Virus record (IMG/VR): IMGVR_UViG_3300044712_001463
DNA from: a virus
Lineage: Duplodnaviria; Heunggongvirae; Uroviricota; Caudoviricetes
Strand: one strand, 5' to 3'
DNA length: 30,861 bases
Shown: piece after piece, positions 3,133-28,761 of the stretch
How positions within the stretch are numbered: position 1 is the first letter of the stretch
Layout of the letters: each line of letters begins with the position of its first letter
Position numbers and translations under genes: made by a program
The notes under the pieces: model-generated
Database searches by the model: none
What the model saw: only the letters and a program-made list of their open reading frames with translations
What the model was told of the DNA's origin: nothing

Positions 3133-3420
3133 ATGGAATCGACGCCATCTCCTAAAAAGAAAAAAGCATTTGAGGAAAAGTTTCCAGTTGTAATTGGAAG
3201 ATGGTATCGTTGTAATTTGATTAAGAAAAGAAACACAATAATAAAAATAACGGGCTACGAAGAGATATATCAGTGTGATGTTTATAAGTTGAAATATGGT
3301 TCTGCTTTTTTGATAAAAAAATCCCTTCCAATTACGGAAGGGGATTTGTTTAATTTCTTCAGACCAGCGAAGAAGCCTAGTATTCATGGATTTGATTATT
3401 CAGAGTATAAACTTCTTTAG
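3133..3420 (+). CDS. Hypothetical basic protein
   Basis: ORF track; follows the upstream gene by 5 nt; 3' end overlaps the convergent HNH gene by 21 nt. Confidence 0.6.
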   Translation: MESTPSPKKKKAFEEKFPVVIGRWYRCNLIKKRNTIIKITGYEEIYQCDVYKLKYGSAFLIKKSLPITEGDLFNFFRPAKKPSIHGFDYSEYKLL

Positions 3421-3798
3421 CATTGCTTTGGCAGTCTTGAAATTAAACTTCTTCTTTTTCTTTTTTAATTCTGCTTTGATTAGTTCAGCCTGGTTAGGAG
3501 AAAGATTGAAATGCAAAGCAAAGTGTTCAGTATCTTTTAGAAGTTGAAGATTTTCTATTCTATTGTCGTTTCTTTTTTTGTTTATATGATGAACGTGCTG
3601 ATCTGATTTCAGTGGTTTGCCAAGGTTATGCATTATAATCAGTCTATGTATGAAGTGCTTCTGCCATCCTATCTTAAAATACAAATAGCCATTCCGAGCC
3701 CGGGATGGCTTTTTCTTTGGGCTATCCTTTAGAACCACGGTTCCTTTGGCTTCATCTATTATCAATAGATTCATTAATTTTTCAAATGACTTGTTCAT
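3400..3798 (-). CDS. Free-standing HNH endonuclease (HNH_3-like, homing-endonuclease type)
   Basis: IHRLIIM...HVHHINKKRNDNRIENL is an HNH signature; oriented against the flanking genes; Lys-rich tail. Confidence 0.85.
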   Translation of the reverse strand: MNKSFEKLMNLLIIDEAKGTVVLKDSPKKKPSRARNGYLYFKIGWQKHFIHRLIIMHNLGKPLKSDQHVHHINKKRNDNRIENLQLLKDTEHFALHFNLSPNQAELIKAELKKKKKKFNFKTAKAMLKKFIL

Positions 3799-7774: not shown

Positions 7775-8065
7775 TTAGATTACTCTTAGAATTATATCTT
7801 CTTCTGGAAGCGCTTTGTATTTTACCGCATCAATTTCGACTTCGTGCCCTGCATATTTTCCAATGACGACAACATCCCCAGGGTTTACTTGCATTGGGAT
7901 GAGAACTCCATCCTTATCCCTTTTGCCTGGTCCAACAGAAATAACAGTATAGGTTTCGCTTTGTTGTTCAACTATGTTTTCTGGAAGCAAGATTCCAGAT
8001 TTTGTTTTTTCATCTCTTTTATTCTCTTTTATCAAAACTATGTTTCCTAAAGGCTGAAATTGCAT
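7775..8065 (-). CDS. groES: Co-chaperonin GroES (Cpn10)
   Basis: QPLGNIVLIK, mobile loop KTKSGILLP, VISVGPGK, GDVVVIGKYAG; AGGAG RBS. Confidence 0.93.
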   Translation of the reverse strand: MQFQPLGNIVLIKENKRDEKTKSGILLPENIVEQQSETYTVISVGPGKRDKDGVLIPMQVNPGDVVVIGKYAGHEVEIDAVKYKALPEEDIILRVI

Positions 8066-8093
8066 TTTCTCTCCTAGAAGGTTGGTTTATAAT

Positions 8094-8121
8094 ACTATAC
8101 ATAATTTTACTTATTTTTAAA
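8094..8121 (-). promoter_or_regulatory. sigma70-like promoter for groES, 16-bp spacer
   Basis: Minus strand TTTAAA-N16-TATAGT; divergent from the nadD promoter. Confidence 0.55.
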
Positions 8122-8133
8122 GAAAATAATTCG

Positions 8134-8161
8134 TTGACAAGAAAGATTTTTTAAGTATAGT
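8134..8161 (+). promoter_or_regulatory. sigma70-like promoter for nadD, 16-bp spacer, likely leaderless transcript
   Basis: TTGACA(8134-8139)-N16-TATAGT(8156-8161); ATG 7 nt downstream; no SD visible. Confidence 0.8.
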
Positions 8162-8167
8162 AGTGCT

Positions 8168-8773
8168 ATGACTAGAACTATTGCAATCCTAGGCGGGTCT
8201 TTCAATCCAGTGACCAACGGTCATTTGGCTGTGGCTAATTGCGTTTTAAAAAGCATTAGAGATATAGAATGTGTGTATTTGATGCCAGCAAATAAACATA
8301 TGTTTGGAAAAGAGAATGAGTATTGGAAAAATCGATTGGACTTATTGAAATTGGTAGAAACCGATAGGATAAAAGTATTCACATATGAAATTGACAATAA
8401 TCTGAACGGGTCAACATATGAAACAATGAAAATGTTAAAGTCGGATCCTGAATACAAAGATACCAACTTTCTTTTTATTGTTGGGTCTGATTGTCTTTCT
8501 AATCTTCATAGATGGAAAAACATAAAAGGTCTTGGAGAACTAGTTGATTTGGTTGTTGTAAAAAGAGAAGGATTTTCAATAGAGCCAGAAGATTTAAGCG
8601 AGCAACAAAAAGAAGCCCTATTTTGTTTCAATAAGTTTATTATGTTAGATTGTGCGACGGAATCATTTTCCTCTACACAAGTAAGAAAAGTATTGACAAG
8701 TGGTGGCGATATAAGTAAAATGGTACCACACAAAGTCTTTGAGGCTATTCATGCAAACCTTCCTTCCTTATAA
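8168..8773 (+). CDS. nadD: Nicotinate-nucleotide adenylyltransferase
   Basis: ILGGSFNPVTNGH ((H/T)xGH), IVGSDCL, SSTQVRK. Confidence 0.9.
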   Translation: MTRTIAILGGSFNPVTNGHLAVANCVLKSIRDIECVYLMPANKHMFGKENEYWKNRLDLLKLVETDRIKVFTYEIDNNLNGSTYETMKMLKSDPEYKDTNFLFIVGSDCLSNLHRWKNIKGLGELVDLVVVKREGFSIEPEDLSEQQKEALFCFNKFIMLDCATESFSSTQVRKVLTSGGDISKMVPHKVFEAIHANLPSL

Positions 8774-9254
8774 AAACTTCAATCTATGCGCTAGGGCACT
8801 TGATAGAAAGAGACTTGGCAAGCAACGCGTCGAGGCTCTTCAGATACTTTATGCCCTTACTGGATTGAGCGCATCTATTGTAAATCCCGCCGTTGGAGAA
8901 GAGTATACAAAAACAACCACAAAGAAACATGGTTGGAGTAATCATCCAGCAGTCCTGATGTGGAAGGGGCATGAACGCGCCTTGATTCGGTATGGTATTG
9001 CAATGTGCCAAGAATGGATTAGGCTAGGATACAAAGATACTTGCACTAAAAAGTTTTTGTATGTCCAGTCATTGCTCAAAGATGCAAGTGATAGCAATCC
9101 CTGGTGGCTTGGTGATGACAGGCTTCATTCTAGTCATAGGTCAAATCTAATAAGAAAAGATTCATCTTTCTATGGTAATACTTTTAAGGAAGATGATTCG
9201 ATGCCATATTTTTGGCCAACAAGGGAGACTATAAATGAAGTCAAAGCTGCTTAG
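8751..9254 (+). CDS. Pyrimidine-dimer DNA glycosylase-like protein (MSMEG_6728/T4 endonuclease V-like family)
   Basis: MQTFLPY...ALDRKRLGKQRVEALQIL...NHPAVLMWKGHE...HSSHRSNLIRKD; GAGG RBS before ATG 8751; overlaps the nadD 3' end. Confidence 0.85.
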   Translation: MQTFLPYKNFNLCARALDRKRLGKQRVEALQILYALTGLSASIVNPAVGEEYTKTTTKKHGWSNHPAVLMWKGHERALIRYGIAMCQEWIRLGYKDTCTKKFLYVQSLLKDASDSNPWWLGDDRLHSSHRSNLIRKDSSFYGNTFKEDDSMPYFWPTRETINEVKAA

Positions 9255-9648
9255 TATTCTAAGGGAATCATATAAGTTGATTGATAAGGATGATGCAATA
9301 GAACAAGATGCCAAGTTTATTGCTAAGGTATCTTTTAGGTATTACTTAACAAACAAGTTTATTACTAGACAGTTTGCAATTTATGATGTTAGATTTGTAA
9401 CAACGCTATTGTTTTGGTTCTTGTCAATATTAGGCATGTTTCTTGGTCATTATTTAAATCTTCCAGCAATTTATTTCTTTTTGATATTTATAACAACTTC
9501 TTATTTGATTTATATAGAGTTCAATGGTTTTAAGATACTGCGTAAAAAAAGGATACGACTACTAAAGAATATCCTTCATAATCCCAAAAACACATTTCTT
9601 GATGATGAAACAATAAAGAATTTAAAAGAAGCGATCGGAGAAGAATGA
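9235..9648 (+). CDS. Membrane protein, hypothetical
   Basis: Two central hydrophobic helices; overlaps the upstream stop. Confidence 0.65.
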   Translation: MKSKLLSILRESYKLIDKDDAIEQDAKFIAKVSFRYYLTNKFITRQFAIYDVRFVTTLLFWFLSILGMFLGHYLNLPAIYFFLIFITTSYLIYIEFNGFKILRKKRIRLLKNILHNPKNTFLDDETIKNLKEAIGEE

Positions 9649-9661
9649 CAGAAATTTTTAC

Positions 9662-9689
9662 TTGACAAGTTAGCAAATCTAAGTATAAT
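9662..9689 (+). promoter_or_regulatory. sigma70-like promoter, 16-bp spacer
   Basis: TTGACA(9662-9667)-N16-TATAAT(9684-9689). Confidence 0.85.
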
Positions 9690-9727
9690 AGTGTTCATCA
9701 GACAATAATCCATATATGGAGGAACAG

Positions 9728-10180
9728 ATGGCAAATGTTACTTTGGCAAAGGCTTTGAATGTTAAGAACAAGTTGGCTGGCGAGATTAACTTGCTCCAGC
9801 AACGCATCCAGGCTTGCAACACTTACGTTGATGGTAAGGTTGGCAACTTTGATGTGAAAAAGATGATGGCTGAACTCTTCGAAAAGAAGGTTCGGCTGAT
9901 TGCCATTAAGACGGCAATCTCGACCGCAAACACGGCAATCTATGACAAGATTGAGCGTGTGAAGGAACTTAAGGGAGACATTGTCTTCCTTGGTTCAGTC
10001 CCGTGTCGGGAACACAAGGATGTCTCTGGTTACGGAGAGCACCGCACGGAGCGTGTTTTTGATTGTGTTTATAAGGACGTTGAGATTGCAAAGATGGTTG
10101 AGGAGCGTTCTGCGCAGATTGAGCAGTTGCAGGATGAAATCAACTATTTCAATAACACTACCAAGATTGATATTCCTTGA
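9728..10180 (+). CDS. DIP1984/DUF6847-like helical (coiled-coil) protein
   Basis: GGAGG RBS; N-terminal TLAKAL..KNKL..EI..LQQRI and C-terminal IEQLQDEINYFNNTTKI match the family pattern as recalled. Confidence 0.65.
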   Translation: MANVTLAKALNVKNKLAGEINLLQQRIQACNTYVDGKVGNFDVKKMMAELFEKKVRLIAIKTAISTANTAIYDKIERVKELKGDIVFLGSVPCREHKDVSGYGEHRTERVFDCVYKDVEIAKMVEERSAQIEQLQDEINYFNNTTKIDIP

Positions 10181-10192
10181 GTAGTGTTGCAC

Positions 10193-10398
10193 GGTGGGGA
10201 GGATGGTGACGAGTAATAGTTGAGAGGTGGCTTGGACGCGCCTGAACAGGGCGCATCCATATTACCTTCGCAGATCAGGACGATGATGAGCATAAGCTTA
10301 AAACACTTAATCTCTTAATCTAATCCTAAAGCCTCAACAATTAAAACTCTTTCGGCCATCCTTAACTGTGAAAGCATCATCCTCCCTGCCACCCTTTT
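10193..10398 (+). ncRNA. Putative ~200-nt structured RNA (nested long-range stems, internal hairpin, G-poor repeat loop)
   Basis: GGTGG/CCACC plus GGAGGATGGTG/CATCATCCTCC closing stem; TAGTTGAG-A-GGTGGCT (10217-10232) pairs with GGCCATCCTTAACTG (10354-10368); hairpin at 10234-10258; ends in CUUUU. Confidence 0.7.
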
Positions 10399-10412
10399 AA
10401 CATGGAGATAAA

Positions 10413-10643
10413 ATGAAGTTCTATATTCATTATAGGTATAATGCGAAAAATTTTCCAAAAGTTAGATATGAAGCAATTATGGCTAGTTTTAAAAAAATGC
10501 CTAAAAACTTTTCCTATGATGATGACAGGATTTGTGATATTGGAATGGGCAGGAATAAGGAAGAGGCACTTAAAGATTTAAAGGAAAGAACTCTTAGGAA
10601 TTTCCATTTTGCAGTAGATATGATGCGGACCATTGGATACTAA
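10413..10643 (+). CDS. Small hypothetical protein
   Basis: GGAG RBS; ORF track; contains DIGMGRNKEEALKDL. Confidence 0.65.
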   Translation: MKFYIHYRYNAKNFPKVRYEAIMASFKKMPKNFSYDDDRICDIGMGRNKEEALKDLKERTLRNFHFAVDMMRTIGY

Positions 10644-10656
10644 AAAGGAGAAAGTC

Positions 10657-11313
10657 ATGGGAAATAAACACTATGTAGTCGCCAGCCAGACTGCTTCACT
10701 TGATGTTGATCCTCAAATTGGATTTACGCCACTTAGCCCAAGTGAACTTCCAGTAGCAGATGGAAATCTTATTGTTGATGAATTGAATAAGAATGCAACT
10801 AAGGCTCAGAGGCGCCTAGCCTCTAAGGATGCGCATAATCCAGTTGGAACCTGGATTGCAACAAATGAAAATCCTCAATTCTCACCTGTTGGAACGGCTA
10901 ATGTTGATATTCGCTGGAACCGGCACTGTGAGGTTGGCACTAGGGGCATGGACTTCATTCCTGGGCTACCGAAGCCACTTGAGTATGACTTTGTGGCATA
11001 CAAGGGCATTGAGGCTGATTCTCACCCCTATGGTGCGTGCTATCACGACCTTGCAGACAAGCAAAGCACTGGGCTTATTGAATACCTGCTTCGCTGGGAT
11101 GTCAAGGAAGTCATTGTCGGCGGACTTGCTCTTGACTACTGCGTAAAGACAACGGTCTTGCAATTGGTCAAGGCTGGCTTTAAGGTTATCGTTAATCTTG
11201 CATCAACAAAGGCTATTGATTTCAATGGAAGTAAGCAGGCATCGATTGATGAAATGAAAACTGCTGGAGTTATTTTCGTTGACTCTGCGGATGACATTGT
11301 TTGTGTCAGGTGA
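10657..11313 (+). CDS. pncA: Nicotinamidase (isochorismatase family)
   Basis: DVDPQIGF, SKDAH, RHC, YKG, GLALDYCVKTT give the D-K-C triad and metal ligands; AAGGAG RBS before ATG 10657. Confidence 0.9.
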   Translation: MGNKHYVVASQTASLDVDPQIGFTPLSPSELPVADGNLIVDELNKNATKAQRRLASKDAHNPVGTWIATNENPQFSPVGTANVDIRWNRHCEVGTRGMDFIPGLPKPLEYDFVAYKGIEADSHPYGACYHDLADKQSTGLIEYLLRWDVKEVIVGGLALDYCVKTTVLQLVKAGFKVIVNLASTKAIDFNGSKQASIDEMKTAGVIFVDSADDIVCVR

Positions 11314-11323
11314 CAGATTTCAC

Positions 11324-11351
11324 TTGACAAGTAGAGAGGTCTCGGTATAAT
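11324..11351 (+). promoter_or_regulatory. sigma70-like promoter for pncB, 16-bp spacer, embedded in a hairpin
   Basis: TTGACA(11324-11329)-N16-TATAAT(11346-11351). Confidence 0.8.
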
Positions 11352-11371
11352 AGTTACCGAGACCTCTTTTT
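11335..11371 (+). terminator. Intrinsic terminator or cruciform overlapping the pncB -10 box
   Basis: AGAGGTCTCGGTA-TAATAGT-TACCGAGACCTCT, perfect 13-bp inverted repeat followed by a T-run. Confidence 0.75.
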
Positions 11372-11397
11372 GTATGCATGCCACTATGGGAGCGAAA

Positions 11398-12570
11398 ATG
11401 ACTATTATCAATTCATTGCTAGATACGGATTTTTATAAGTTTTCGATGCTCCAGGCTATAATCCATCAATTTCCGCATTGTATTGCGGAATATGAATTTG
11501 TATGCAGAAATGAAGATGTGAGATTCCCTCCCGAGTTCTTAAAGGAACTAAACAAAGAGTTGGATCATCTTTGTTCCCTCCGTTTTACCGAAGATGAACT
11601 TTCTTACCTTTCAAAGATACGTTTTTTCAAGCCCGACTTCATTGAATACCTTAGAATGTTCCAGCTCGATAGGAATAAGATTATCGCAACTGTTAATGAT
11701 GGTCGTCTATATATCCGTGCCAAGGGTGCTTTCCAGTCAGCAACAATGTTTGAGGTTTATGTCCTTAGTATTGTTAATGAACTTTATTTCAGACTCAAAG
11801 ACAAGGAAGATCCATTTGTTCTTGAAGAAGGAAGGATTACCCTTGAAAATAATTTGAACATGTATACTTCTCCATATAACCATGGGATTAAATTTGCTGA
11901 TTTTGGAACTCGTCGTCGGTATTCATTTGCCTGGCATGATGAAGTGATTCAATACTTGCTAAAGCATGGGCATGGCATTCTTGGCGGAACTAGTAACGTC
12001 TTTTTCGCTAAGAAGTATGGAATCATTCCAGTTGGAACAATGGCGCATGAAATCTTCATGGCTAGTCAGCAACTTACAAGGCTTAAGGAGAGTCAGCAAT
12101 TTACTCTCCAGAAGTGGGCTGATGAATATCGTGGAGATTTAGGGGTGGCACTTACCGATACCATTGGTGTCGATGCGTTTCTTCGTGACTTCGACCTTTA
12201 CTTTGCCAAGTTGTTCGATGGCGTCCGGCATGATAGCGGAGACCCCAAAGAGTTTGCCAATAAGATTATCGAACACTATAAGAAACTCGGTATCGACCCC
12301 AAGACCAAGAGCATCACGTTCTCTGATGGATTAACATTCAAAAAGATGTTGGATCTTCGTGTCTTTAATGGTGAGATTAAAGTTCTATTTGGAATTGGCA
12401 CTAAGTTGACAAATGATATGGGTGAAGGGCACAAGCCTTTGAATATCGTTATGAAGATGGTTACTTGCAATGGTCAGCCAGTTGCCAAGATTAGCGATGG
12501 TGCAGGAAAGACCATGTGTCATGATCCTCTATTTATTGATTATCTTAAGCAGCAGTTTGGAGTTAAGTGA
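11398..12570 (+). CDS. pncB: Nicotinate phosphoribosyltransferase
   Basis: LLDTDFYKFSM, DFGTRRR, GTMAHE (phospho-His), RHDSGDP, FSDGL, FGIGT, KISD; GGGAG RBS before ATG 11398. Confidence 0.95.
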   Translation: MTIINSLLDTDFYKFSMLQAIIHQFPHCIAEYEFVCRNEDVRFPPEFLKELNKELDHLCSLRFTEDELSYLSKIRFFKPDFIEYLRMFQLDRNKIIATVNDGRLYIRAKGAFQSATMFEVYVLSIVNELYFRLKDKEDPFVLEEGRITLENNLNMYTSPYNHGIKFADFGTRRRYSFAWHDEVIQYLLKHGHGILGGTSNVFFAKKYGIIPVGTMAHEIFMASQQLTRLKESQQFTLQKWADEYRGDLGVALTDTIGVDAFLRDFDLYFAKLFDGVRHDSGDPKEFANKIIEHYKKLGIDPKTKSITFSDGLTFKKMLDLRVFNGEIKVLFGIGTKLTNDMGEGHKPLNIVMKMVTCNGQPVAKISDGAGKTMCHDPLFIDYLKQQFGVK

Positions 12571-12680
12571 TGAAATCCATTAAGAGAATAATTAGCGCGG
12601 CATGGAAAAAGGTAATTGAGTTTTGTGACATAACTGTTGATTTTTGGAATAAGGATAAGGAGGAAGACCATGGCTATTAA
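12570..12680 (+). CDS. 36-aa small protein not in the ORF track (MKSIKRIISAAWKKVIEFCDITVDFWNKDKEEDHGY)
   Basis: TGATG coupling to the pncB stop, GGAG at 12559-12562; fills the gap exactly and overlaps the next start. Confidence 0.5.
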   Translation: MKSIKRIISAAWKKVIEFCDITVDFWNKDKEEDHGY

Positions 12681-12990
12681 GATGATTAAGAAGACTCTAT
12701 ATATATTTACAGATGATAGGGTTCCAGGCTCTCTAGAATATAGAGGCGGCAACACTTTTATATATAGGTATAATCAATCAGTAATACATGGACACTATTC
12801 GGTGTTTAGTGGAATAGCCATCAATGGAGATGCTTTTTGGGATCCCACTGAAGAGAATATTCATGCTTGCGCCCAACATATTATGGATGATAAGGCAAGT
12901 GAGATAAATGAGCAGAGGCAGGAGATAAATGAGAAGAAGAAAGAGTCTAAGGTCTCTTTCTTTAAGCGTCTATTTGGGGGAAAGTCATGA
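12670..12990 (+). CDS. Hypothetical protein
   Basis: AAGGAGG RBS before ATG 12670; ATGA overlap with nadE. Confidence 0.7.
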   Translation: MAIKMIKKTLYIFTDDRVPGSLEYRGGNTFIYRYNQSVIHGHYSVFSGIAINGDAFWDPTEENIHACAQHIMDDKASEINEQRQEINEKKKESKVSFFKRLFGGKS

Positions 12991-14720
12991 AGATTATGTT
13001 GGCTCAAATCAATACGACCCCTAATGACTTTGTTGGAAATTACAATAAAATCATTGATGGCATTGAACAAGCCAAAGCAGAAGGCTGTAAACTAGCTGTA
13101 TTTCCAGAGCTAAGCATCTGTGGTTATGGCGTCAAGGATTTGGTTTACAAGCCAGGCTTCATTGAGAAAAACTCAAAGACTCTCAGGGAAATTATTGATT
13201 ATTCCTCGCAGGAGCCTGTGAGTGGAATAACTATTGTTGTTGGTTATATCGATGAAAACACAACTGGAGAAGGCAAGCCATTCCGTAATATGGCGGCTGT
13301 AATTCGGGGCGGCAGAATTCTTTGCACCTACCAGAAGCGCCTATTGCCGTTCTATGATGTTTTTGATGAGGGTCGCTGGTTTGAGCCTGGAAAAGAGAAC
13401 GCTGTCTTTGATATCGATGGCGTTAAGTGGGGTGTTATTATCTGTGAGGATGGTTGGCACTCGGATAAGGGCGAAACTGGACTTATCAATCATCACGTTG
13501 ATCCTTTGCAGAGTTATAAGGACATCGGCGTAAAAAACATTGTGAGTCTAAATAGTAGCCCTTATTATCATGGCAAGGACATTGTGAGACTTCAGACCTT
13601 TAGAGATAAGTGCACGGAACTTGGCTTTGATCTGTTGGTCTATTGTAATCAGAGTGGTGGGCAGGATGAACTCGTGTTTGATGGCAATGGATTCGTGGTC
13701 GGCAAGGATTCCTACATTCATGACACCTTCCAATCGGCTTTCCCTAGATACGGTAGAGACACATTTAATAAGGAATATTTTGTAGTTGATACCGAGCAGG
13801 GCGGAATCTCGGTAAGTCATAGTAGACAAGCGGAATACCTTCGCATGGCAGTAGTTGGGCTCCAGGATTATGCTAGAAAGACAAAGCAAAAGAAGTTTGT
13901 GATTGGCTCTAGCGGTGGAGTAGATAGCGCCCTAGTAATTAGTCTCGCCTGTATTGCATTCGGACCTGAGAATGTAACAGGTATTCGTATGCCATCTGCT
14001 ATCAGTAGTCAGGGGAGTAAGGATGATGCCTTGAGACTCCATCAGAATTGGGGATGTAAAGACTTGATGGTTTCAATTGATCATCAGGATTTCCTTGCTC
14101 ATGTAAACTCTGGACTAGGATTGGAGCAAGGAAATTATCATGCTGTTGCCGACGAGAACATTCAGGCTCGTATGCGTGGTCAGATTGTGATGCACTATAG
14201 CAACGCAACTGGAGCCCTACCTCTTACAACGGGTAACAAGACTGAGTTGAGTCTCGGATATTGCACACTCTACGGTGACATGTCGGGTGGTTTCAATCCG
14301 ATTGGCGATATGTATAAGTATATGGTTTATGAGATGTGCAAATTGATTAATGAGTTTTATGGAAACAAGATACCTAAGGAGATTATTGAAAAGGCTCCAT
14401 CGGCTGAATTAGCCCCTGGACAGACTGATGAAAAGTCATTGATGCCATATCGACTTCTTGATAAGATTGTTGAGGAGTATGTTGAGAACTATATCTGCAA
14501 TCTTGCACAGTTCAAGGCTAAGATTGAAAAGACAGGATTGCATACCTCTGGTCTTTGGGCACTTCAACCAGAGGATATCACAATCTTAGATGAAAAGTAT
14601 GACCAGATGATTCGTAGGACCGATAACTGTGAGTTTAAGCGTAGACAGGCTGCTCCTTGTATCAAGCTTACCAAGAAGAGTTTTGGAACTGGGCGACGCA
14701 TGCCTATTGCCAGAGGATAA
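12987..14720 (+). CDS. nadE: Glutamine-dependent NAD+ synthetase (nitrilase domain plus synthetase domain)
   Basis: FPEL, YQKRLLP, ICEDGW (E-K-C triad); SSGGVDS, ENIQARMR, TGNKTE, APSAEL, KRRQAAP. Confidence 0.96.
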   Translation: MKIMLAQINTTPNDFVGNYNKIIDGIEQAKAEGCKLAVFPELSICGYGVKDLVYKPGFIEKNSKTLREIIDYSSQEPVSGITIVVGYIDENTTGEGKPFRNMAAVIRGGRILCTYQKRLLPFYDVFDEGRWFEPGKENAVFDIDGVKWGVIICEDGWHSDKGETGLINHHVDPLQSYKDIGVKNIVSLNSSPYYHGKDIVRLQTFRDKCTELGFDLLVYCNQSGGQDELVFDGNGFVVGKDSYIHDTFQSAFPRYGRDTFNKEYFVVDTEQGGISVSHSRQAEYLRMAVVGLQDYARKTKQKKFVIGSSGGVDSALVISLACIAFGPENVTGIRMPSAISSQGSKDDALRLHQNWGCKDLMVSIDHQDFLAHVNSGLGLEQGNYHAVADENIQARMRGQIVMHYSNATGALPLTTGNKTELSLGYCTLYGDMSGGFNPIGDMYKYMVYEMCKLINEFYGNKIPKEIIEKAPSAELAPGQTDEKSLMPYRLLDKIVEEYVENYICNLAQFKAKIEKTGLHTSGLWALQPEDITILDEKYDQMIRRTDNCEFKRRQAAPCIKLTKKSFGTGRRMPIARG

Positions 14721-14721
14721 G

Positions 14722-15300
14722 ATGCCTAAAAAGAAAAAAGAACAAGACGCACAGGAAGAACAAGAAGTTCAAAAAGTGGTCCAAAAAATTGAAGACGATG
14801 ATGATGAAAATGGTGGGTCATCGAGAAAACTCCAAGACAACGGAGTTGGACATGGTCCGTATTCAAAATTGCTTGCTGGATGTAAAAGGGCAATTCTTGA
14901 ATATAAAGTCTGTGGAAATTTAACATCTGCTTGCCTTGCTTATGCAAAGCCAAACGGTAGCGTTAGACTTTATTTATATGATAAGGAAACAATTAAAAAG
15001 TTAGAAGAAGATATGGGAATGAAGGTAGATTTTCAAATGATTGAAAAAAAGATAGCAGAATATGGATATCTTGTAAGACCAGTAAATTATGTAGAGGAAG
15101 GGAGAGCGTCCGAGCCTCTGCCTTCTGGGAAAAAGATAACAAAAAAGCAAGAGGCTATAAATAAAAAGAAAGATAAAATAAAGAAAAAAGTCGATGGTTT
15201 AGAGGATAAATTAAGTAAAATCAAAAATCAGAAATGTGACCGAGCAAACAAATTAAAGGAAAAAATAAAAGAACTAACAACTAGAATGGATAGGCTCTAA
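14722..15300 (+). CDS. Highly charged hypothetical protein
   Basis: GAGG RBS, ATG 2 nt after the nadE stop; acidic N-terminus and Lys-rich coiled-coil C-terminus. Confidence 0.7.
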   Translation: MPKKKKEQDAQEEQEVQKVVQKIEDDDDENGGSSRKLQDNGVGHGPYSKLLAGCKRAILEYKVCGNLTSACLAYAKPNGSVRLYLYDKETIKKLEEDMGMKVDFQMIEKKIAEYGYLVRPVNYVEEGRASEPLPSGKKITKKQEAINKKKDKIKKKVDGLEDKLSKIKNQKCDRANKLKEKIKELTTRMDRL

Positions 15301-15303: not shown

Positions 15304-15325
15304 AAGCCCCTAGAAATAGGGGCTT
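15304..15325. terminator. Intrinsic terminator
   Basis: AAGCCCCTA-GAAA-TAGGGGCTT (GNRA loop). Confidence 0.75.
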
Positions 15326-18916: not shown

Positions 18917-19798
18917 ATGATAGTGATGCCAGAGACATTATCTTTGCACCCAACAATGCAATGCGATTATCATTGTGTTAATTGTTATTTGAAGAAAGAC
19001 ATTGATTCTTTGGAAGAAAAGTCTCCAGAGTTTTTTCTTAAATTAGTTGAAGAGGCATCTAAAAATGGAATCAAGGAATTAATGATTCCAGTTAACTATG
19101 TAAAACCAGAAGCGACATATGAAGAAAGTCTCAAAAAGGATAGAAATCTTTTTTACTACAATACGTTAAGGAAAAAGGCAATAGAGTGTGGTATGACTTT
19201 CTCCATGACATGTAATTATGAGTTCATTGAGTTTTACAAGAAAGATCTTGATTTTGATGGTATAAGACTTCTTAGTGTATCAATGAATGATTTTGTTACT
19301 AGCACAAAAGATAAGAAAAATGCCGCAATCGAAACAATGAAGTTTTTGAAAGAAAAAGGAGTAGAGCATGTTAATTGCACAGTTCTTCTTTCAAAGAATA
19401 TGGCTGAGCAATTAAGAGATGGGCTAGCTAGCGAAATCTTAGAGGTTGCAGATACTATCTTTATCATATCTAGTAAGCCACATACGGTTCCGATGAATGT
19501 CATTTATGCCTGGCTTGATATATTGAAAAACAATGTGCTGACAATGATTGATAAAAGAGTTCTTCTTGATAGCTGCCTTAAGAACATTATAGGAATAACA
19601 AATGGATATTGTTCAAGGCATGATATGATTTATGTAAATCCATATGGTGAAGTCAAGATGTGTAGTTATGATAAGTTGAATCTATTTACATTAGAAAATC
19701 CAGAACAGATAGGTCATGTTATAAAAACGTTCTATCCTCAAAAGCAGGTTTTTGATTGTCCGCTGTTAACTATGGGAAAAACACTTAGGAGCAAATAA
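18917..19798 (+). CDS. Radical SAM protein with possible C-terminal Twitch/SPASM-like Cys cluster
   Basis: CDYHCVNC (CxxxCxxC); YVNPYGEVKMCSY plus additional C-terminal cysteines; GAGGAG RBS. Confidence 0.85.
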   Translation: MIVMPETLSLHPTMQCDYHCVNCYLKKDIDSLEEKSPEFFLKLVEEASKNGIKELMIPVNYVKPEATYEESLKKDRNLFYYNTLRKKAIECGMTFSMTCNYEFIEFYKKDLDFDGIRLLSVSMNDFVTSTKDKKNAAIETMKFLKEKGVEHVNCTVLLSKNMAEQLRDGLASEILEVADTIFIISSKPHTVPMNVIYAWLDILKNNVLTMIDKRVLLDSCLKNIIGITNGYCSRHDMIYVNPYGEVKMCSYDKLNLFTLENPEQIGHVIKTFYPQKQVFDCPLLTMGKTLRSK

Positions 19799-21660
19799 TG
19801 TCTATTATAAAAAGAAAAGGCTTATCGGAACTTAAGGGTCGCAAGGCCAGCGTGATTAGTGGATTGATTGATCATGTTTATTCTGGAACATCACTGCTAT
19901 ATCTTTTAGGTAATGATGAAAAAAATACATTACTAGATGTTAGACGAGCAATTTCTTCTTTGATTAAATATCAAAAAAAAGAAGGCGAACCAAGAGAGTA
20001 TTCTTATTATGAGTGGTCTTCCGCAAAGGGACTTTATGAATTTCAGATGTCTCCAATAAACAAGCAATTCGATGCTGAGTTTAATAACTACATCACTGCC
20101 GAAAAGGAAGATGAGGTTCTACAACAGACTTCTACTCAGGTCAATATGACTATGCCATCTCCGCAGGGTGGCGGAATGATTCCTTTGAATCAAACGGACC
20201 CTTTAAGCCCATTGACTTTTTTAACATCAAAGAGTGTTCAGACGCGAAAGGACGCATCTGCTTCAAGTGTTAAGTTAAAAATTGTAGTCATGAAGGATGT
20301 CCATCCATTTCTTGAAAAGAATCCGAATTTTGTAAGGAAGGTAAAAGACATTATTATTGATAATGATTCAGACTTGGAAGATGCTCTTAATCGTAGACTT
20401 ATCATTATTTTTGTTGGGAACACTAAAGTTGTTCCAGCAGAAATCGAGAACCTTATTACTGTAATTGATTGGGGTCAGCCTACTCCAGATGAAATCGTTG
20501 ACCATCTCAAGGGTCTTGTTATCGAAGAAATAGTTGACAAGGTTCCTACTGAAAAGGATATTTTCAGGACCAAGTATACAAAGGAAGAGGTTGATCAAAT
20601 CAAATCTGCTCTTACTGGATTGTCATATCCAGAAATTGAGACGGCTATTACTACATCCAATGTAAGATTTGGAGAATTGAAGCCCGAATTCCTGGTTGAT
20701 TTCAAGAGACAAATTGCATTAAAGAATGGTATGCTAGAATACCGTCCTGTAAACAACGCCATGGCTGACGTTGGAGGACTTGACTGCCTCAAGGATTGGA
20801 TTAAAGTAAGAAAGACAGCATATAGCAAAGAGGCTCAGGAGTTTGGAATCAAGCCTCCAAAGGGAGTATTGCTTGTAGGAATCCAGGGTTGCGGAAAGAG
20901 TCTTTCAGCTCAGGCTATAGCCGCAGAATTTGGACTTCCTCTCGTAGTCTTTGACATTGGAAGAGTTCTTTCAAAGACCGTTGGTTCTTCTGAAGAAAAT
21001 ATGAGAAGAACTCTAGCTACTCTTGACGCCATATCTCCAGTTGTTGCTGTTTTTGAAGAGGCTGAAAAGGCTCTATCTGGAGTCCGGTCATCGGAATCAT
21101 CTGATGCTGGAACAACTAGCCGTGTCGTAAGCACCCTTCTTGATTGGATGCAAAATAGAACTTCGCCAGTTTTCGTCGTAATGACGGCAAATGATATAAG
21201 AAAATTTGACGCTGAACAAATCAGAAAGGGTCGTTTAGATGAAGTATTTTTCTGTTCTCTTCCAGAAGAGGATGAGAGAGAGGAAATCTTCAGGATTCAT
21301 CTTAAGAAAGCCGGAAGGAATCCAAATGATTTTGACGTAAAGGCTTTTGCTAAGATGTCGGCAAATTTCTCTGGCTCAGAAATTGAGTATGTAATCCATG
21401 ATGCTCTAATTATAGCTTTCAATTCTCCAAAAAGAAAATTAGATAACATGCATATTTTACAGGCTATCAAGCAGGCTATTCCACTGTTTAGGACTTGTGA
21501 AGAACAACTTCAATTTATGTATGATTGGGTTGGGTGGGATGAGGAAAGAAAGGAAGGCAATAGGGCAAGGTATGCATCTCAATCAAGAAAGCGGCAGTCT
21601 GAAAAAGAAGGTAAGAACATTATTAAATTAAGAGACATGAGCAAGAAAGAGGCTTCATAA
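19798..21660 (+). CDS. Ycf46-like AAA+ ATPase
   Basis: Degenerate N-terminal AAA region (IVVMKDVHPFL), DVGGLDCLKDW, GVLLVGIQGCGKS, FEEAEKAL, TANDI, RKGRLDE. Confidence 0.85.
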   Translation: MSIIKRKGLSELKGRKASVISGLIDHVYSGTSLLYLLGNDEKNTLLDVRRAISSLIKYQKKEGEPREYSYYEWSSAKGLYEFQMSPINKQFDAEFNNYITAEKEDEVLQQTSTQVNMTMPSPQGGGMIPLNQTDPLSPLTFLTSKSVQTRKDASASSVKLKIVVMKDVHPFLEKNPNFVRKVKDIIIDNDSDLEDALNRRLIIIFVGNTKVVPAEIENLITVIDWGQPTPDEIVDHLKGLVIEEIVDKVPTEKDIFRTKYTKEEVDQIKSALTGLSYPEIETAITTSNVRFGELKPEFLVDFKRQIALKNGMLEYRPVNNAMADVGGLDCLKDWIKVRKTAYSKEAQEFGIKPPKGVLLVGIQGCGKSLSAQAIAAEFGLPLVVFDIGRVLSKTVGSSEENMRRTLATLDAISPVVAVFEEAEKALSGVRSSESSDAGTTSRVVSTLLDWMQNRTSPVFVVMTANDIRKFDAEQIRKGRLDEVFFCSLPEEDEREEIFRIHLKKAGRNPNDFDVKAFAKMSANFSGSEIEYVIHDALIIAFNSPKRKLDNMHILQAIKQAIPLFRTCEEQLQFMYDWVGWDEERKEGNRARYASQSRKRQSEKEGKNIIKLRDMSKKEAS

Positions 21661-21681
21661 CATTTACTAGGGGATTAAATA

Positions 21682-22956
21682 ATGCCGCCGACATCCAAAG
21701 AAAAATGCTCTTTTTGTGGAAAGAAACAAGATGAAGGAGTTCGTCTGTTTAAGTCTCCAGACAATTCCACAAATATATGTTCAGAATGTAATGCATTAAT
21801 ACATGAAATGAATGATGCAGAAGAAAAGAAAAAAGAAGACGGAGAACAGTCTTATGAGTTTACTTTGGATTTATATACACCAGATCAAATGTATGATCAT
21901 TTGAATAAGTTTGTTATTGGGCAAGACAGGGCTAAGAAGTTTCTGTCTGCGGCAGTTTATGAACATTATAAGAAGATTAAAAACAATGTTTTCGAAAAGA
22001 AAAAGGGAGAGTTAGAATTAGAAAAATCAAACATTCTTATAACTGGTCCATCTGGTTGTGGTAAAACTCTTATGCTTAGAATGCTTGCTAAGATGGTTGG
22101 TGTGCCATTTGCGATTGCTGATGCCACAACCTTGACGCAAGCAGGATATGTTGGAGAAGATGTTGAGAACGTGGTCCAGAGGCTTTATCAGGTTGCTCCA
22201 GGTAGGACACATGAAGAAAAGGTATTTTTTACTCAAGTCGGAATGGTTGTAATTGACGAGGGCGACAAAATAGCAAGAAAGGGAGAGGGTCCATCAATTA
22301 CTAGAGACGTTAGCGGCGAGGGCGTCCAGCAGGCTTTATTGAAACTCCTTGAAGGGACTAGATGCAATCTACCTCTTCATGTTCATGCTGGCGGTAGAAA
22401 GCATCCTAGGCAGGAGATGTTTCAGGTAGATACCTCTAACATACTTTTCGTTTATTGTGGCGCCTTCGAGGGGCTAAACGAAATAGTTAAAAAGAGAGTG
22501 AATACTGGAAATTCAGGTCTTGGATTTGAATCAAAAGTTCAAAAAGATTTTGTTAATAGTTCTTCTCACATTAAGAAAGTAATAGATGAAGACTTTATAA
22601 AGTTCGGACTAATTCCAGAACTAGTTGGACGGCTTCCAGTTATTGTATCTTTAGAAGAATTAACTAAGGAGCAATTTAAGAGGATTTTAACAGAGCCAGA
22701 AAACTCTATCATCAAGCAGCAGAAGAAAATGTTTGAAATGGATGGAATTGAACTTGTAATAACAGAAGATGGACTAGACGCCATAGCAGAAGAGGCAAGC
22801 AAAAAGAAGATTGGGGCTAGAGCATTAAGGTCGGTAGTTGAAACGGTTCTTTTTGAAGATAAATTCAATATAGTAAAATTGAAAGGTAAAAAACTAATAA
22901 TAGATTCAGAAAAAGTCAAGAAAATGCTTTCTAACAATGATGAAATTGCTGCTTGA
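21682..22956 (+). CDS. clpX: ATP-dependent Clp protease ATP-binding subunit ClpX
   Basis: CSFCGK..CSEC zinc domain, [37 protein letters not shown] ClpP-docking loop, GARALR. Confidence 0.96.
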
Positions 22957-22980
22957 AAAATATCCATTTTTTGGTATAAT
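22953..22980 (+). promoter_or_regulatory. sigma70-like promoter P1 (16-bp spacer, extended -10)
   Basis: TTGAAA-N16-TATAAT with TGG before the -10 box. Confidence 0.75.
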
Positions 22981-22985
22981 TAAGG

Positions 22986-23013
22986 ATGACAAGCAAGAAA
23001 AAACGCATATAAT
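22986..23013 (+). promoter_or_regulatory. sigma70-like promoter P2 (16-bp spacer), tandem with P1
   Basis: ATGACA(22986-22991)-N16-TATAAT(23008-23013). Confidence 0.65.
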
Positions 23014-23050
23014 ATAACTAATCAAATTCATTCATCAAAAGGAGAACAAA

Positions 23051-23452
23051 ATGTCACACGTAACTACTGTAAAGACTGTAATTACAAATCTTGATGCAAT
23101 CAAGAGAACCGTCAAGGAGCTAGGATATGCAAGCAAGGAGAATGCTTCCTTGTCTGGGGCATATGTTAAGGGTCAAAAGGTTGATTTGGTTATCGATCTT
23201 GGTTCAAGAAGCGATGTTGGCTTTAATAAGGAACCTGACGGGACCTACACTATGGTTGGCGACTTCTATGGGCTTGATGGGTATGGACAGCCGTTCAAGG
23301 ACAGGTTCATGAATAGATATAACTATCTATTGGTAATGGATGCAATCAATGCTGGTGCTGCTCCAGCCATCTCAATTGATGGAGTAAATATCCAACAGAA
23401 TGGTATTATTGAGATTGAGGCAACTATTAACGAGCAAGTCGTCGGTCTATAA
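23051..23452 (+). CDS. DUF1257 (Ycf35-like) protein
   Basis: MSHVTTVKTVITNLDAIKRTVKELGY...DVGFNKEPDGTYTMVGD; AAGGAG RBS. Confidence 0.8.
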   Translation: MSHVTTVKTVITNLDAIKRTVKELGYASKENASLSGAYVKGQKVDLVIDLGSRSDVGFNKEPDGTYTMVGDFYGLDGYGQPFKDRFMNRYNYLLVMDAINAGAAPAISIDGVNIQQNGIIEIEATINEQVVGL

Positions 23453-23479
23453 TCCAAAAACTATATAAGGAGAATTAAA

Positions 23480-23668
23480 ATGGCTAAGCTGAAGATTACC
23501 TTTAAGGATGGGAAGATTGTTTCGCAAACTAATGGGGTTGCTGGTTCATCCTGTCTCAAGGTTGATGAGTTTCTAAATAACCTTGGGCAGGCTAATACTC
23601 AGTTGACTCAAGAATATTACAATAAAGAACGTGCCTCTGATGTTGTAATTACTGGGTTTGAGGGATAA
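23480..23668 (+). CDS. DUF2997 family protein
   Basis: ITFKDGKIVSQTNGVAGSSC...LG...TQEYY; adjacent to DUF1257, its usual partner. Confidence 0.8.
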   Translation: MAKLKITFKDGKIVSQTNGVAGSSCLKVDEFLNNLGQANTQLTQEYYNKERASDVVITGFEG

Positions 23669-23685
23669 AACAAAACTTTGAGGCT

Positions 23686-24654
23686 ATGATGACTAGAGTT
23701 TCTGGATCTCTCGCAAAGAGATTGAAAAAGATTTACAAAGAACCATCTGTTGAACAAGAAAAAGATGATGATGATGAAAATGTAGATGATGTCTACAATC
23801 AGTGGTCTTCCCCTGACAATGTCTGTTTTTTCCCTAGCTCTAAAACTGTTAAGTCAGTTGAACCTGGAGTCTATTATGGTATTTCTACACAAAGTAGAGG
23901 TATTGGCATAAAGAGAATAGACTTCATGACTGGCAATCTTATTAAGTTTCCAGATACAGTGTCGGATAGAGTCATATTCGATATTGAAAAGTTTTGGAAA
24001 TCGGCAGATGAATATGCTGGAATCGGAGAAGTTTACAAGAGGGGTATTCTCCTTCATGGAGACCCTGGGCATGGAAAAACCTGCACAATTAACATGGTCA
24101 TTAAAGATTTGATTGAAAATCGAAACGGAATTGTTTTGATGTTCAGGGATCCGAACATTGACATTGAGGCAATGAGAATTATAAGAAAGATTGAGAAGAG
24201 CAGACCACTAGTTGTATTGATGGAAGATATTGATGCCATCATAGATCGACACGAGGAGTCTGATATACTCAATCTTCTTGATGGCGTAAATCAGATGGAA
24301 AATGTTGTATTCTTGGCGACTACAAACTATCCTGAAAAACTAGGAGGACGCGTTACTAACCGTCCTAGCAGGTTTGATAGGGTGTTTGAGATTGCTCCTC
24401 CAGGAACGGCATCTAGGAAGATGTATATTGAGCATCTTGTTGGAAACTATTGTAAGTATAAAAAGATTGATAAGGCTCCAAATATTAACATTGCAAATAT
24501 CGTTGAAGACACCGCAAATCTTTCATTCGCCCATATAAAAGAACTCGTATTGTCAACTCTTGTATATGGATACGAATACAATGATACAGTTAAGGTGTTG
24601 AAAGGAATGAAGAAGGTAAAAAAGACTGGGAAAGATGTAGGGTTTAATGAATGA
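23686..24654 (+). CDS. Single-domain AAA+ ATPase (BCS1-like classical AAA)
   Basis: RGILLHGDPGHGKT, LMEDID, LATTNYPEKL, RPSRFDR. Confidence 0.85.
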   Translation: MMTRVSGSLAKRLKKIYKEPSVEQEKDDDDENVDDVYNQWSSPDNVCFFPSSKTVKSVEPGVYYGISTQSRGIGIKRIDFMTGNLIKFPDTVSDRVIFDIEKFWKSADEYAGIGEVYKRGILLHGDPGHGKTCTINMVIKDLIENRNGIVLMFRDPNIDIEAMRIIRKIEKSRPLVVLMEDIDAIIDRHEESDILNLLDGVNQMENVVFLATTNYPEKLGGRVTNRPSRFDRVFEIAPPGTASRKMYIEHLVGNYCKYKKIDKAPNINIANIVEDTANLSFAHIKELVLSTLVYGYEYNDTVKVLKGMKKVKKTGKDVGFNE

Positions 24655-25622
24655 AAAATCCTTACAAGATTTTAGGGGTTTCAGAAAACGCATCTGATGA
24701 TGAGGTCAAGTCAGCATATAGGAAGTTGGCTAAACAATTTCATCCAGATGTAAACCCTAGTAAGGATGCCGAGTCTAAGTTTAAAGAAATAACACACGCA
24801 TACGATACTATAATAAATAAAAAACATGTCCAGGAGTCACAGCAGCCGGACATGAATGAATTCTTCAGAGAAGCATTCCGAGCCCAAGATGAACTCTTTA
24901 GGCGGGCTCGGAATGCTTTTAATTTTTTGCATTCATTGCCGCCAAATGTAGAGATGTTAATCCAAATAGGCTTCCTTGAGGCTTGTTTTGGGTGTGAAAA
25001 GAAAATAGAGTTTCGCGTAAAGGATAAATGTGAAAGTTGTGAAAAAGAAAAAAAGCATAAGCCATGTGTCGTTTGTGGAGGAACTGGTCATCAAAGTATT
25101 AGAAATGGTTTCTTAAATATAACAACCATATGTTCGGCATGTAATGGCACTGGCAGGATAGTAGAATGTTCTGAGTGTGGCGGAAATGAATATATTGAAA
25201 AAACAAAAGTAGTTCAGATAAAAATACCAGCAGGAATAGATACTGGCAATATTTTAAGAGTTCAAGGAGAAGGCAATTGGGACTTTAAGAATGAAAGATT
25301 TGGTGATATTTTAATAAGGATTGAAATCGAAAAACATTCTAATTTTCAGAGAAACGCAAGGGATATATACAGCAAACAAAAGGTTAATTATTATGATTGC
25401 ATATTAGGCTCTGAGATAGATGTTCATACGATACATGGAATAATAAAGTTTAAAATTCCAGAATGCTGTCAAAATAATACAACTCTGAAGATTGATGGAT
25501 TTGGTATTAAAAATCAAGGAAATCATTATCTAACAATAGAAGTAAGTATTCCAAATAAATTAAATAAGAAAGAAAAAAAAATACTAAACAATATAAAAAA
25601 AAATGCTTCACAAAGTATTTAA
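24651..25622 (+). CDS. dnaJ: DnaJ (type I) co-chaperone
   Basis: J-domain with HPD; four CxxC repeats (first and last degenerate in the GxG part); C-terminal IPAGIDTG and TIHG motifs. Confidence 0.93.
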   Translation: MKNPYKILGVSENASDDEVKSAYRKLAKQFHPDVNPSKDAESKFKEITHAYDTIINKKHVQESQQPDMNEFFREAFRAQDELFRRARNAFNFLHSLPPNVEMLIQIGFLEACFGCEKKIEFRVKDKCESCEKEKKHKPCVVCGGTGHQSIRNGFLNITTICSACNGTGRIVECSECGGNEYIEKTKVVQIKIPAGIDTGNILRVQGEGNWDFKNERFGDILIRIEIEKHSNFQRNARDIYSKQKVNYYDCILGSEIDVHTIHGIIKFKIPECCQNNTTLKIDGFGIKNQGNHYLTIEVSIPNKLNKKEKKILNNIKKNASQSI

Positions 25623-25634
25623 ATGTGATATAAT
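25607..25634 (+). promoter_or_regulatory. sigma70-like promoter, 16-bp spacer
   Basis: AAATGC-TTCACA(25607-25612)-N16-TATAAT(25629-25634), with TGA extended -10. Confidence 0.75.
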
Positions 25635-25661
25635 ATACGTGAAATAAAACATGGAGGAAAA

Positions 25662-26936: not shown

Positions 26937-26942
26937 CGGAAG

Positions 26943-27503
26943 GTGACTAAATTGGCCTGGTGGATTGTAAACATAACAAGCGGATACGAGCAAAAGGTTA
27001 AAAACACGCTCGACACAACACAGGATCTTAAAAAGATTGATAAAACAGTCTTGGTCCCAGTGTTGAAAAAGAAGAAGTTTCATCGGGATAAGTTGTATTT
27101 TTATACCGAAAAACTTTTTCCTGGATATGTTTTTTTCCAATGTGCCGACTCGGATTTGGAAGCGATTGTAACCACAGTCGTTAACATCCCTGGCATTCTT
27201 AACATGTCTAGTATAAAAGGAATAAGACATGTTGTTTTGCCGATTCAGGACAGGGAAATGGATTATGTTTTTAGATATATTTGTGACAGTAAAGACAGAA
27301 CCAACAATGCTCTTGATGGACTGAATATTATTAGAAAGAAAGTTAAAATAGTAGAAGGTCCATTCTGTAATTTTGAGGGTATTGTCCTAGAGGCGCATAA
27401 GGCAGCCAATAAAGAAACAAAACTAAAGATTTGCACAAATATGTTTAACAATGAGCTATCAACTGTGGTAGTTCCAATTTCTCAAGTAGAACTAATAGCT
27501 TAG
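26943..27503 (+). CDS. nusG: NusG-family transcription elongation/antitermination factor
   Basis: WWIVNITSGYEQKV, LFPGYVFF, KOW motif KVKIVEGPFCNFEGIV; GTG start. Confidence 0.88.
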   Translation: MTKLAWWIVNITSGYEQKVKNTLDTTQDLKKIDKTVLVPVLKKKKFHRDKLYFYTEKLFPGYVFFQCADSDLEAIVTTVVNIPGILNMSSIKGIRHVVLPIQDREMDYVFRYICDSKDRTNNALDGLNIIRKKVKIVEGPFCNFEGIVLEAHKAANKETKLKICTNMFNNELSTVVVPISQVELIA

Positions 27504-28692: not shown

Positions 28693-28730
28693 AATAGGAG
28701 CAAGGATTTTTCCTTGTTCCTATTTGTTTT
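28693..28730 (+). terminator. Intrinsic terminator
   Basis: AATAGGAGCAAGGA-TTTT-TCCTTGTTCCTATT (14 bp, one G-U) followed by TGTTTT. Confidence 0.8.
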
Positions 28731-28733
28731 TAG

Positions 28734-28761
28734 TTGATTTTTATTTGAATTTAGGTATAAT
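28734..28761 (+). promoter_or_regulatory. sigma70-like promoter, 16-bp spacer
   Basis: TTGATT(28734-28739)-N16-TATAAT(28756-28761). Confidence 0.7.

Follow-up and report, generated by a model that had tools for sequence, protein, structure and literature searches.

Depletion of nicotinamide adenine dinucleotide (NAD+) is a major arm of bacterial immunity. Does a phage that carries every enzyme leading from nicotinamide to NAD+ possess a new pathway for restoring the dinucleotide, and would such a route be directed at immunity or at metabolism in general? The question is raised by the IMG/VR virus record IMGVR_UViG_3300044712_001463 (Caudoviricetes), a stretch of 30,861 nucleotides that is hereafter called the window and means the whole of the DNA analysed. 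Its genes nadD, pncA, pncB and nadE retain their catalytic residues and are accompanied by sigma70-type promoter sites, and the same gene set occurs widely among viruses. Together they likely make up a phage-borne, four-step deamidating NAD+ salvage route, in which the nicotinamidase PncA precedes the Preiss-Handler pathway, carried by a large phage of the rhizosphere. The window is another example of a published gene set, not a new pathway or a new kind of system.

The four NAD+ enzymes

All four NAD+ genes were confirmed on the + strand, within 6.6 kb. They are listed with the evidence for each, G+C content at third codon positions being abbreviated GC3 and open reading frame ORF.

8168..8773, + strand: nadD, nicotinate-mononucleotide adenylyltransferase, 201 aa (profile match, motifs; GC3 0.29, like the phage background)
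10657..11313, + strand: pncA, nicotinamidase, 218 aa from the likely start ATG at 10657 behind AAGGAG, the ORF opening at 10633 (Pfam Isochorismatase, structure match, residues)
11398..12570, + strand: pncB, nicotinate phosphoribosyltransferase (NAPRTase), 390 aa from the likely start ATG at 11398 behind GGGAG, the ORF opening at 11374 (profiles, structure matches)
12987..14720, + strand: nadE, glutamine-dependent NAD+ synthetase, 577 aa, with glutaminase and synthetase domains (profiles, structure alignment)

The initial annotation of this DNA, made from the letters and their translations, had named these four genes and claimed intact catalytic motifs for them, and both statements are borne out by profile searches and structure alignments, with top matches at 34-59% identity for the four enzymes. 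NadD matched TIGR00482 with 116.6 bits (cut-off 112.45) and carries both signatures of the family, (H/T)xGH within G9-GSFNPVT-NGH19 (residues 9-19) and SxTxxR as S168-STQVR (168-173). Its matches among solved structures are NadD proteins. By its sequence the protein is a NadD-type adenylyltransferase of nicotinate mononucleotide (NaMN), with a presumed preference for NaMN over nicotinamide mononucleotide (NMN).

PncA belongs to the Pfam family Isochorismatase (PF00857) and, among solved structures, comes closest to the Acinetobacter nicotinamidase 2wt9 (E 6e-21). Alignment to this structure showed that the triad Asp26, Lys124 and Cys170 as well as the metal ligands Asp66, His68 and His98 are kept. 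In addition, PncA is 56-59% identical to the PncA proteins encoded next to pncB in three loci of the survey described below (L012, L013 and L088).

Whether PncB might be Nampt instead was a point that the initial annotation had left to be settled. PncB scored 471.6 with TIGR01514 (cut-off 269.55) and 519.8 with NF003704 (cut-off 379), both NAPRTase models, and every one of its solved-structure matches is a NAPRTase, with no Nampt or Namat among them. The score with the phage Nampt family phrog_448, 50.7 bits, is weak beside the 471-520 bits of the NAPRTase models. Alignment to 1yir placed the phospho-histidine at His225, within the motif GTMAHE. These sequence matches identify PncB as a true NAPRTase, neither Nampt nor Namat.

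NadE reached 498.3 with NF010588 (cut-off 479) and matched both PF00795 (CN_hydrolase) and PF02540. The glutaminase residues Glu41, Lys117 and Cys153 and the synthetase PP-loop SGGVDS at residue 309 were located by alignment to 4f4h, so that the enzyme does have a glutaminase of its own, as had been claimed. The search for a synthetase of phosphoribosyl pyrophosphate (PRPP) gave no such domain in any window ORF of at least 200 aa, in agreement with the initial reading.

The predicted chemistry, from nicotinamide through nicotinate, NaMN and nicotinate adenine dinucleotide (NaAD) to NAD+, is likewise supported as first proposed. PncA would hydrolyse nicotinamide to nicotinate, which PncB would join with PRPP of the host to form NaMN, with ATP coupling via His225. 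NadD would then adenylate NaMN to NaAD, and NadE would convert NaAD to NAD+ by amidation, the ammonia being channelled from its glutaminase domain. Very probably the four proteins form a working route from nicotinamide to NAD+. Its likely effect would be that the NAD+ level of the infected cell is maintained or increased, to the benefit of the phage whether the loss arises from normal consumption or from a host NADase.

Promoters and transcription units

The window has a G+C content of 36.6%, and nearly all of its genes lie on the + strand. Four perfect TTGACA-N16-TATAAT sites, all on the + strand, occur across its whole length, where 0.03 would be expected by chance. The following elements flank or divide the NAD+ genes.

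8134..8161, + strand: sigma70-type promoter TTGACA-N16-TATAGT, 11/12, before nadD (consensus scan)
8693..8721, + strand: promoter-like site, 11/12, preceding a glycosylase-like gene (consensus scan)
9662..9689, + strand: perfect consensus sigma70 promoter, heading the unit that ends in pncA (consensus scan)
11324..11351, + strand: perfect consensus sigma70 promoter of the pncB-nadE unit (consensus scan)
11333..11369, + strand: 15-bp hairpin of -25.3 kcal/mol with the -10 box of the pncB promoter in its loop and a T-run behind (folding)
15304..15325, + strand: intrinsic terminator-like hairpin of 9 pairs, closing the pncB-nadE unit (consensus/terminator scan)

Three co-directional units are delimited in this way, namely nadD with a Pyr_excise glycosylase gene and orf137; a DIP1984-like gene followed by a structured stretch, orf76 and pncA; and pncB with orf36, orf106, nadE and orf192. 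The three near-consensus sigma70 promoters that had been noted in the block proved to be two perfect sites and one at 11/12, each heading a unit. Since a consensus or near-consensus sigma70 promoter heads every unit, host RNA polymerase can probably transcribe the units, and it would do so early. The most likely reading is a working and probably early-expressed route by which the infected cell is kept supplied with NAD+.

The extended motif (AAAATGC)TTGACAAGT-N13-GTATAAT(AGAGT) is common to the promoters at 1117, 5365, 8134, 9662, 11324, 22986 and 25607. At nadD, no Shine-Dalgarno sequence was found (8156-8170), and the nadD mRNA may be leaderless because the -10 box stops 6 nt ahead of the ATG. 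The hairpin at 11333-11369 is probably the terminator of the pncA unit as well as part of the pncB promoter, and it resembles the promoter-early stem-loop (PeSL) elements of T4-type phages. A search of Rfam at E <= 1 revealed no riboswitch for NAD+, PRPP or any other ligand in the block, the sole matches being weak, terminator-like ones to Phe_leader.

Phage setting and points against the reading

The window appears by its sequence to be phage-like, a stretch of an uncultivated large phage, as the initial annotation had supposed. Its DNA occurs in two sequencing runs, both of them rhizosphere metagenomes and one of them its probable source, and no RNA run is listed with it. Many of the ORFs are orphans. 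The context of a large phage is also seen in the HNH endonuclease, GroES, the ClpX-like protein and two other AAA ATPases, DnaJ, the TubZ/PhuZ-like tubulin and the NusG-like protein, several of which match PHROG families strongly, and the 267-aa protein that follows the cluster has Atlas neighbours exclusively in Uroviricota clusters. NadE has its closest relatives (~50% identity) on contigs 570-620 kb long, one of which is the published huge phage LR756511, and a module of AAA, ClpX and DUF1257 genes is common to the window and the IMG/VR contig L083. A megablast search of 8000-15300 against 50,697 phage records gave no match, nor did an exact 46-mer from pncB in IMG/VR.

Several observations weigh against a working route borne by a phage. 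No phage structural gene (virion or terminase) was found within the 30.9-kb window, so that a viral origin is deduced from the context and the relatives. This absence would agree with a cellular or plasmid origin, in which the four genes would be ordinary bacterial housekeeping genes, and so would L088, where the closest pair of pncA and pncB (56% and 55% identity) stands in a bacterial-looking operon. Such an origin is nevertheless very improbable. A whole-genome search gave no cellular genome for the window, the identities of all four enzymes to their best matches are only 34-59%, and the neighbouring ORFs are mostly orphans or members of phage-only families. The repeated identical early-type promoters, an HNH endonuclease gene in the window and the huge-phage size of the contigs with NadE relatives argue against it as well.

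The other points against a functional phage route concern the genes themselves. PncA scored 69 bits with the E. coli-type nicotinamidase model NF008623, against a curated cut-off of 174, and its substrate is therefore deduced from the conserved residues and the position beside pncB. The supply of PRPP has to be the host's. The cluster is interrupted and does not form one operon, with six unrelated or family-less ORFs and a structured non-coding stretch interleaved. GC3 is mixed among the NAD+ genes, at ~0.40-0.42 for pncA, pncB and nadE and 0.29 for nadD, the rest of the window lying mostly at 0.24-0.37; the pathway was therefore probably put together in at least two steps, and co-regulation need not be assumed. 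Enzyme activity, early timing and physiological role are all read from sequence.

Occurrence of the gene set in other viral genomes

Viral PncB genes numbered at least 497 in a profile scan of IMG/VR. For the 80 best loci, the flanks were searched with iterated profiles; collapsing these loci left 66 non-redundant ones, 11 of which (about one in six) hold PncA, PncB, a NadD-type protein and NadE within 3.1-9.4 kb. PncA, PncB and NadE occur together in 23 more. The enzyme assignments were confirmed with NCBIfam for L041, L024 and L072. L041, a genome with terminal repeats, measures 114,344 bp and has a completeness rating of 100%; its operon pncA-nadE-nadD-pncB takes up ~3.2 kb. The long glutamine-dependent NadE is present in L024 and L027. 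In two further loci, NadD is fused to an ammonia-dependent NadE in a single ORF (L053:11551-12807 and L075:8005-9339), both domains scoring above curated cut-offs.

All four enzymes are also encoded by the 735-kb phage LR756501/LR756503, as found with tblastn against the 50,697 phage records. Here a stretch of ~8.5 kb contains pncA, pncB and a short nadE, and nadD lies elsewhere; the NAD+ genes of LR756501.1 come from the regions 418000-436000 (L087) and 31136-31702. A published account credits phage LR756501 with nadD only (PMC11662467). The co-occurrence of the four genes in viral genomes, which the initial annotation had left to a survey, is thus established by the 11 loci and this phage.

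The pncB flanks of viral NAD salvage clusters (IMG/VR L010-L086) have recurrent neighbours, comprising Thg1 and an NrtR-type Nudix regulator (9 loci each), GIY-YIG endonuclease and T4-type prohead protease (7 each), a trio of vWA, PP2C and kinase genes (6-7), RNA ligase (6) and the CCA-adding enzyme (5). Nudix genes recur in the flanks of viral clusters, and NADAR and Gad2 are found near relatives of NadE. Beside the cluster of the window, none of Thg1, NrtR, Nudix, RNA ligase, CCA-adding enzyme, NADAR, Gad2, GIY-YIG, prohead protease and vWA/PP2C/kinase genes was found, and the kinase/PP2C/vWA cassette of the related loci is absent from the whole window even at relaxed Pfam thresholds. As a test of virality the terminase model PF03237 is poor, with matches in just 7 among 34 viral records and scores above the cut-off in 5; better indicators are the completeness ratings of CheckV/IMG-VR and the T4-type prohead protease in its 7 loci.

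The nearest relatives of the window proteins PncA (56%), PncB (55%) and NadD (36%) are all held by L088. This locus (L088:1003-5039) is a bacterial-looking operon of nadD, a coaD-like fusion, nudix, pncA and pncB beside OmpA and ABC-transporter genes. In a quick tree, the PncB of the window pairs with that of L088, outside a named Moraxellaceae/Neisseriaceae clade. An operon of the L088 type is a plausible donor type for the phage NAD+ genes.

Relation to known NAD+ pathways of phages

NAD+ synthesis of the Nampt type in jumbo phages was described as a counter to NADase effectors by Iyer et al. 2021 (PMC7824862). A subsequent study (Microbiome, December 2024, PMC11662467) described 174 'NAD-jumbo phages' that have a salvage or a Preiss-Handler pathway, named a pncB-nadD-nadE cluster in Kuafu_71 (with Kuafu_19 as another example), mentioned a phage pncA, and proposed independent NAD+ synthesis that possibly counters NAD+ depletion. 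Two reconstitution pathways, NARP1 and NARP2, were demonstrated by experiment in 2024 (Osterman et al. 2024, preprint 10.1101/2024.02.11.579819 for NARP2). PnuC and NadR were added as NARP3, the third reconstitution pathway (Sci Adv, August 2026, PMC13464706).

The initial annotation had put forward the window as a third NAD+-reconstitution pathway, and this claim of novelty does not stand. Preiss-Handler clusters were already published together with the same counter-defence idea (PMC11662467), and the name and place of NARP3 belong to PnuC and NadR (PMC13464706). The four-gene set is moreover common in IMG/VR viral contigs, often in more compact form, and present in LR756501. Since the set is published for jumbo phages and common in viral contigs, the window provides one more example of it.

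Like the NAD-jumbo phages (PMC11662467), which are large and uncultivated, the window encodes every enzyme from nicotinate to NAD+ in clustered genes, and the complete phage-encoded pathway that defines that group is present as four enzymes within 6.6 kb. The group is further defined by a genome above 200 kb, whereas the window shows 30.9 kb only, and the contig listed for its NadE measures 94,861 bp. In contrast to the Kuafu-type clusters, the window has pncA beside pncB, so that the route starts from nicotinamide, and a long glutamine-dependent NadE; its NAD+ genes, interspersed with unrelated ones, are divided among three units that each begin at a promoter. The sources also differ, the window coming from a rhizosphere metagenome and the phages of PMC11662467 from the gut. 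The IMG/VR operons (L041, L047, L050 and L055; L024 and L027) share the same four enzyme families on viral contigs, with proteins ~28-59% identical to those of the window. Unlike the window, most of the pncA-nadE-nadD-pncB operons are tight (3.1-4.2 kb) and have a short ammonia-dependent NadE.

NARP2, consisting of Nampt and a bifunctional NMN adenylyltransferase (NMNAT) as in Vibrio phage KVP40, resembles the window in that NAD+ is rebuilt from nicotinamide and PRPP in the infected cell. It differs in using two enzymes and proceeding via NMN without deamidation and re-amidation, and it has been found experimentally to overcome NAD-depleting defence; its pair of Nampt and NMN adenylyltransferase is not the one in the window, which has PncB. 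NARP1, with the enzymes Adps and Namat, recycles ADP-ribose via ADP-ribose pyrophosphate (ADPR-PP), Namat falling into the same broad phosphoribosyltransferase superfamily as PncB. No PRPS-like Adps was found among the window ORFs of at least 200 aa, and the phosphoribosyltransferase matches the NAPRTase equivalog. NARP3 imports nicotinamide riboside, and neither the PnuC nor the NadR family was found among the window ORFs. Bacterial salvage operons, both of the L088 type and the NrtR-regulated pncA-pncB-nadE type, contain the same enzymes with pncA beside pncB, as in the window. Their setting is cellular, whereas the cluster of the window lacks a Nudix/NrtR regulator and has phage early-type promoters instead.

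What the route may serve

One possible role is a dedicated counter-defence, in which the route would rebuild NAD+ from the nicotinamide released by SIR2/TIR NADases (Thoeris, DSR, SIR2-HerA and short-pAgo systems); it would then be, functionally, a fourth NAD+ reconstitution pathway. Its starting substrate is the very product of the NADases, and the promoters are strong and of the early type. Related viral loci place NAD genes beside genes of RNA repair and counter-defence (Thg1, RNA ligase, the CCA-adding enzyme, NADAR and Gad2) and beside NrtR, an ADP-ribose-responsive regulator. Such neighbours are missing here, the search beside the cluster of the window having given neither NrtR, Nudix or NADAR nor any other anti-defence gene. 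The route is also costly, requiring four enzymes, host PRPP, ~3 ATP and glutamine per NAD+, and many bacteria, E. coli included, own the same route. NADase defences deplete NAD+ even in bacteria that have the deamidating route, E. coli among them. That NAD depletion can be overcome by salvage routes is known from NARP2 and NARP3, and the counter-defence idea itself has been proposed (PMC7824862 and PMC11662467). Among the papers found in our literature search, none puts the deamidating route to the test against NAD-depleting defence. Taken together, a dedicated counter-defence is possible but less likely than not.

Alternatively, as the initial annotation had allowed, the route could be general metabolic support with no specific link to immunity, providing NAD+ for phage enzymes that consume it, for the long infection cycle of a very large phage, or in a host without nicotinamide salvage. 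NAD-jumbo phages carry many NAD+-consuming enzymes, and the pathways of phage and host are often complementary (PMC11662467). The surroundings in the window are also housekeeping-like rather than defence-related, comprising chaperones, ClpX, DnaJ, NusG, DeoC and a purine phosphoribosyltransferase. However, the window yielded no recognisable NAD+-consuming enzyme, and the clusters of relatives lie near RNA-repair and anti-defence genes. General metabolic support is a serious candidate, about on a par with counter-defence, though short of a probable one. That the role for which the salvage route was selected is specifically the defeat of NAD-depleting immunity is conceivable but somewhat doubtful.

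Other genes of the window

The genes and the stretch interleaved with or following the NAD+ genes are these.

8739..9254, + strand: pyrimidine-dimer DNA glycosylase-like gene (Pyr_excise / MSMEG_6728 family), not NAD-related (profile match)
9235..9648, + strand: orf137, 137 aa, no family match (profile searches)
9728..10180, + strand: DIP1984/DUF6847-like gene, weak matches below curated cut-offs, GC3 0.54, the maximum of the window (profile searches)
10193..10393, + strand: structured non-coding stretch between the DIP1984-like gene and orf76/pncA (minimum free energy -77.8 kcal/mol, z -5.08 against shuffles)
10413..10643, + strand: orf76, 76 aa, no family match, immediately 5' of pncA (profile searches)
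12570..12680, + strand: orf36, 36 aa, its start overlapping the pncB stop (TGATG) (ORF)
12670..12990, + strand: orf106, 106 aa, behind AAGGAGG, its stop overlapping the nadE start (ATGA), no relatives found (ORF, searches)
14722..15300, + strand: orf192, 192 aa, lysine-rich, beginning 1 nt past the nadE stop, no relatives found (ORF, searches)

A homologue of the DIP1984-like gene with 40% identity lies directly upstream of nadE in the phage-like contigs L006 and L007; gene and downstream spacer extend over 9728-10393 in the window, L006:9259-10000 and L007:2391-3132. The spacers of L006 and L007 are not alignable with the structured stretch of the window (10193-10393), for which no Rfam family was found at E <= 1. 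The ORF between pncB and nadE (orf106, 106/117 aa) showed no similarity to the 121-aa ORF that follows pncB in L006.

A block of chaperone and cytoskeleton genes at 7775-8065 (-) and 19798-27503 (+) comprises GroES, two AAA ATPases (one of them phrog_8638), a DUF1257 protein, a ClpX-like protein that has a zinc finger, DnaJ, and proteins resembling NusG and the tubulins TubZ/PhuZ. A candidate tRNA-Arg(TCT) of 85 nt called by ARAGORN at 26423-26507 is a probable false positive, as it sits inside the tubulin-like ORF. The HNH endonuclease gene, likely a homing endonuclease, lies at 3400-3798 (-) amid orphans of the + strand. At 28724-29945, the deoxyribose-phosphate aldolase DeoC (TIGR00126, 194.7 bits) is followed by a purine phosphoribosyltransferase of the xanthine/hypoxanthine type, which is a second PRPP-consuming enzyme, near the end of the window.

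Significance

Three phage pathways for the restoration of NAD+ have been proven by experiment, and the deamidating route is in none of them. Many large phages, that of the window included, encode this route, and any protective value of it is directly testable. The window offers a clean and intact test set of four genes with a glutamine-dependent NadE and defined promoters, and the survey gives a rough frequency of the full route, about one in six among the 66 viral PncB loci. A genuine counter-defence may lie in the deamidating route, which would be expressed early from promoters of the host type and would reconstitute NAD+ through nicotinate intermediates after SIR2/TIR attack; this reading is possible, though rather doubtful. 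If it is true, the route would be the first of these systems for which deamidation and re-amidation are shown, and since the gene set is widespread in large phages, the result would apply to hundreds of viral genomes.

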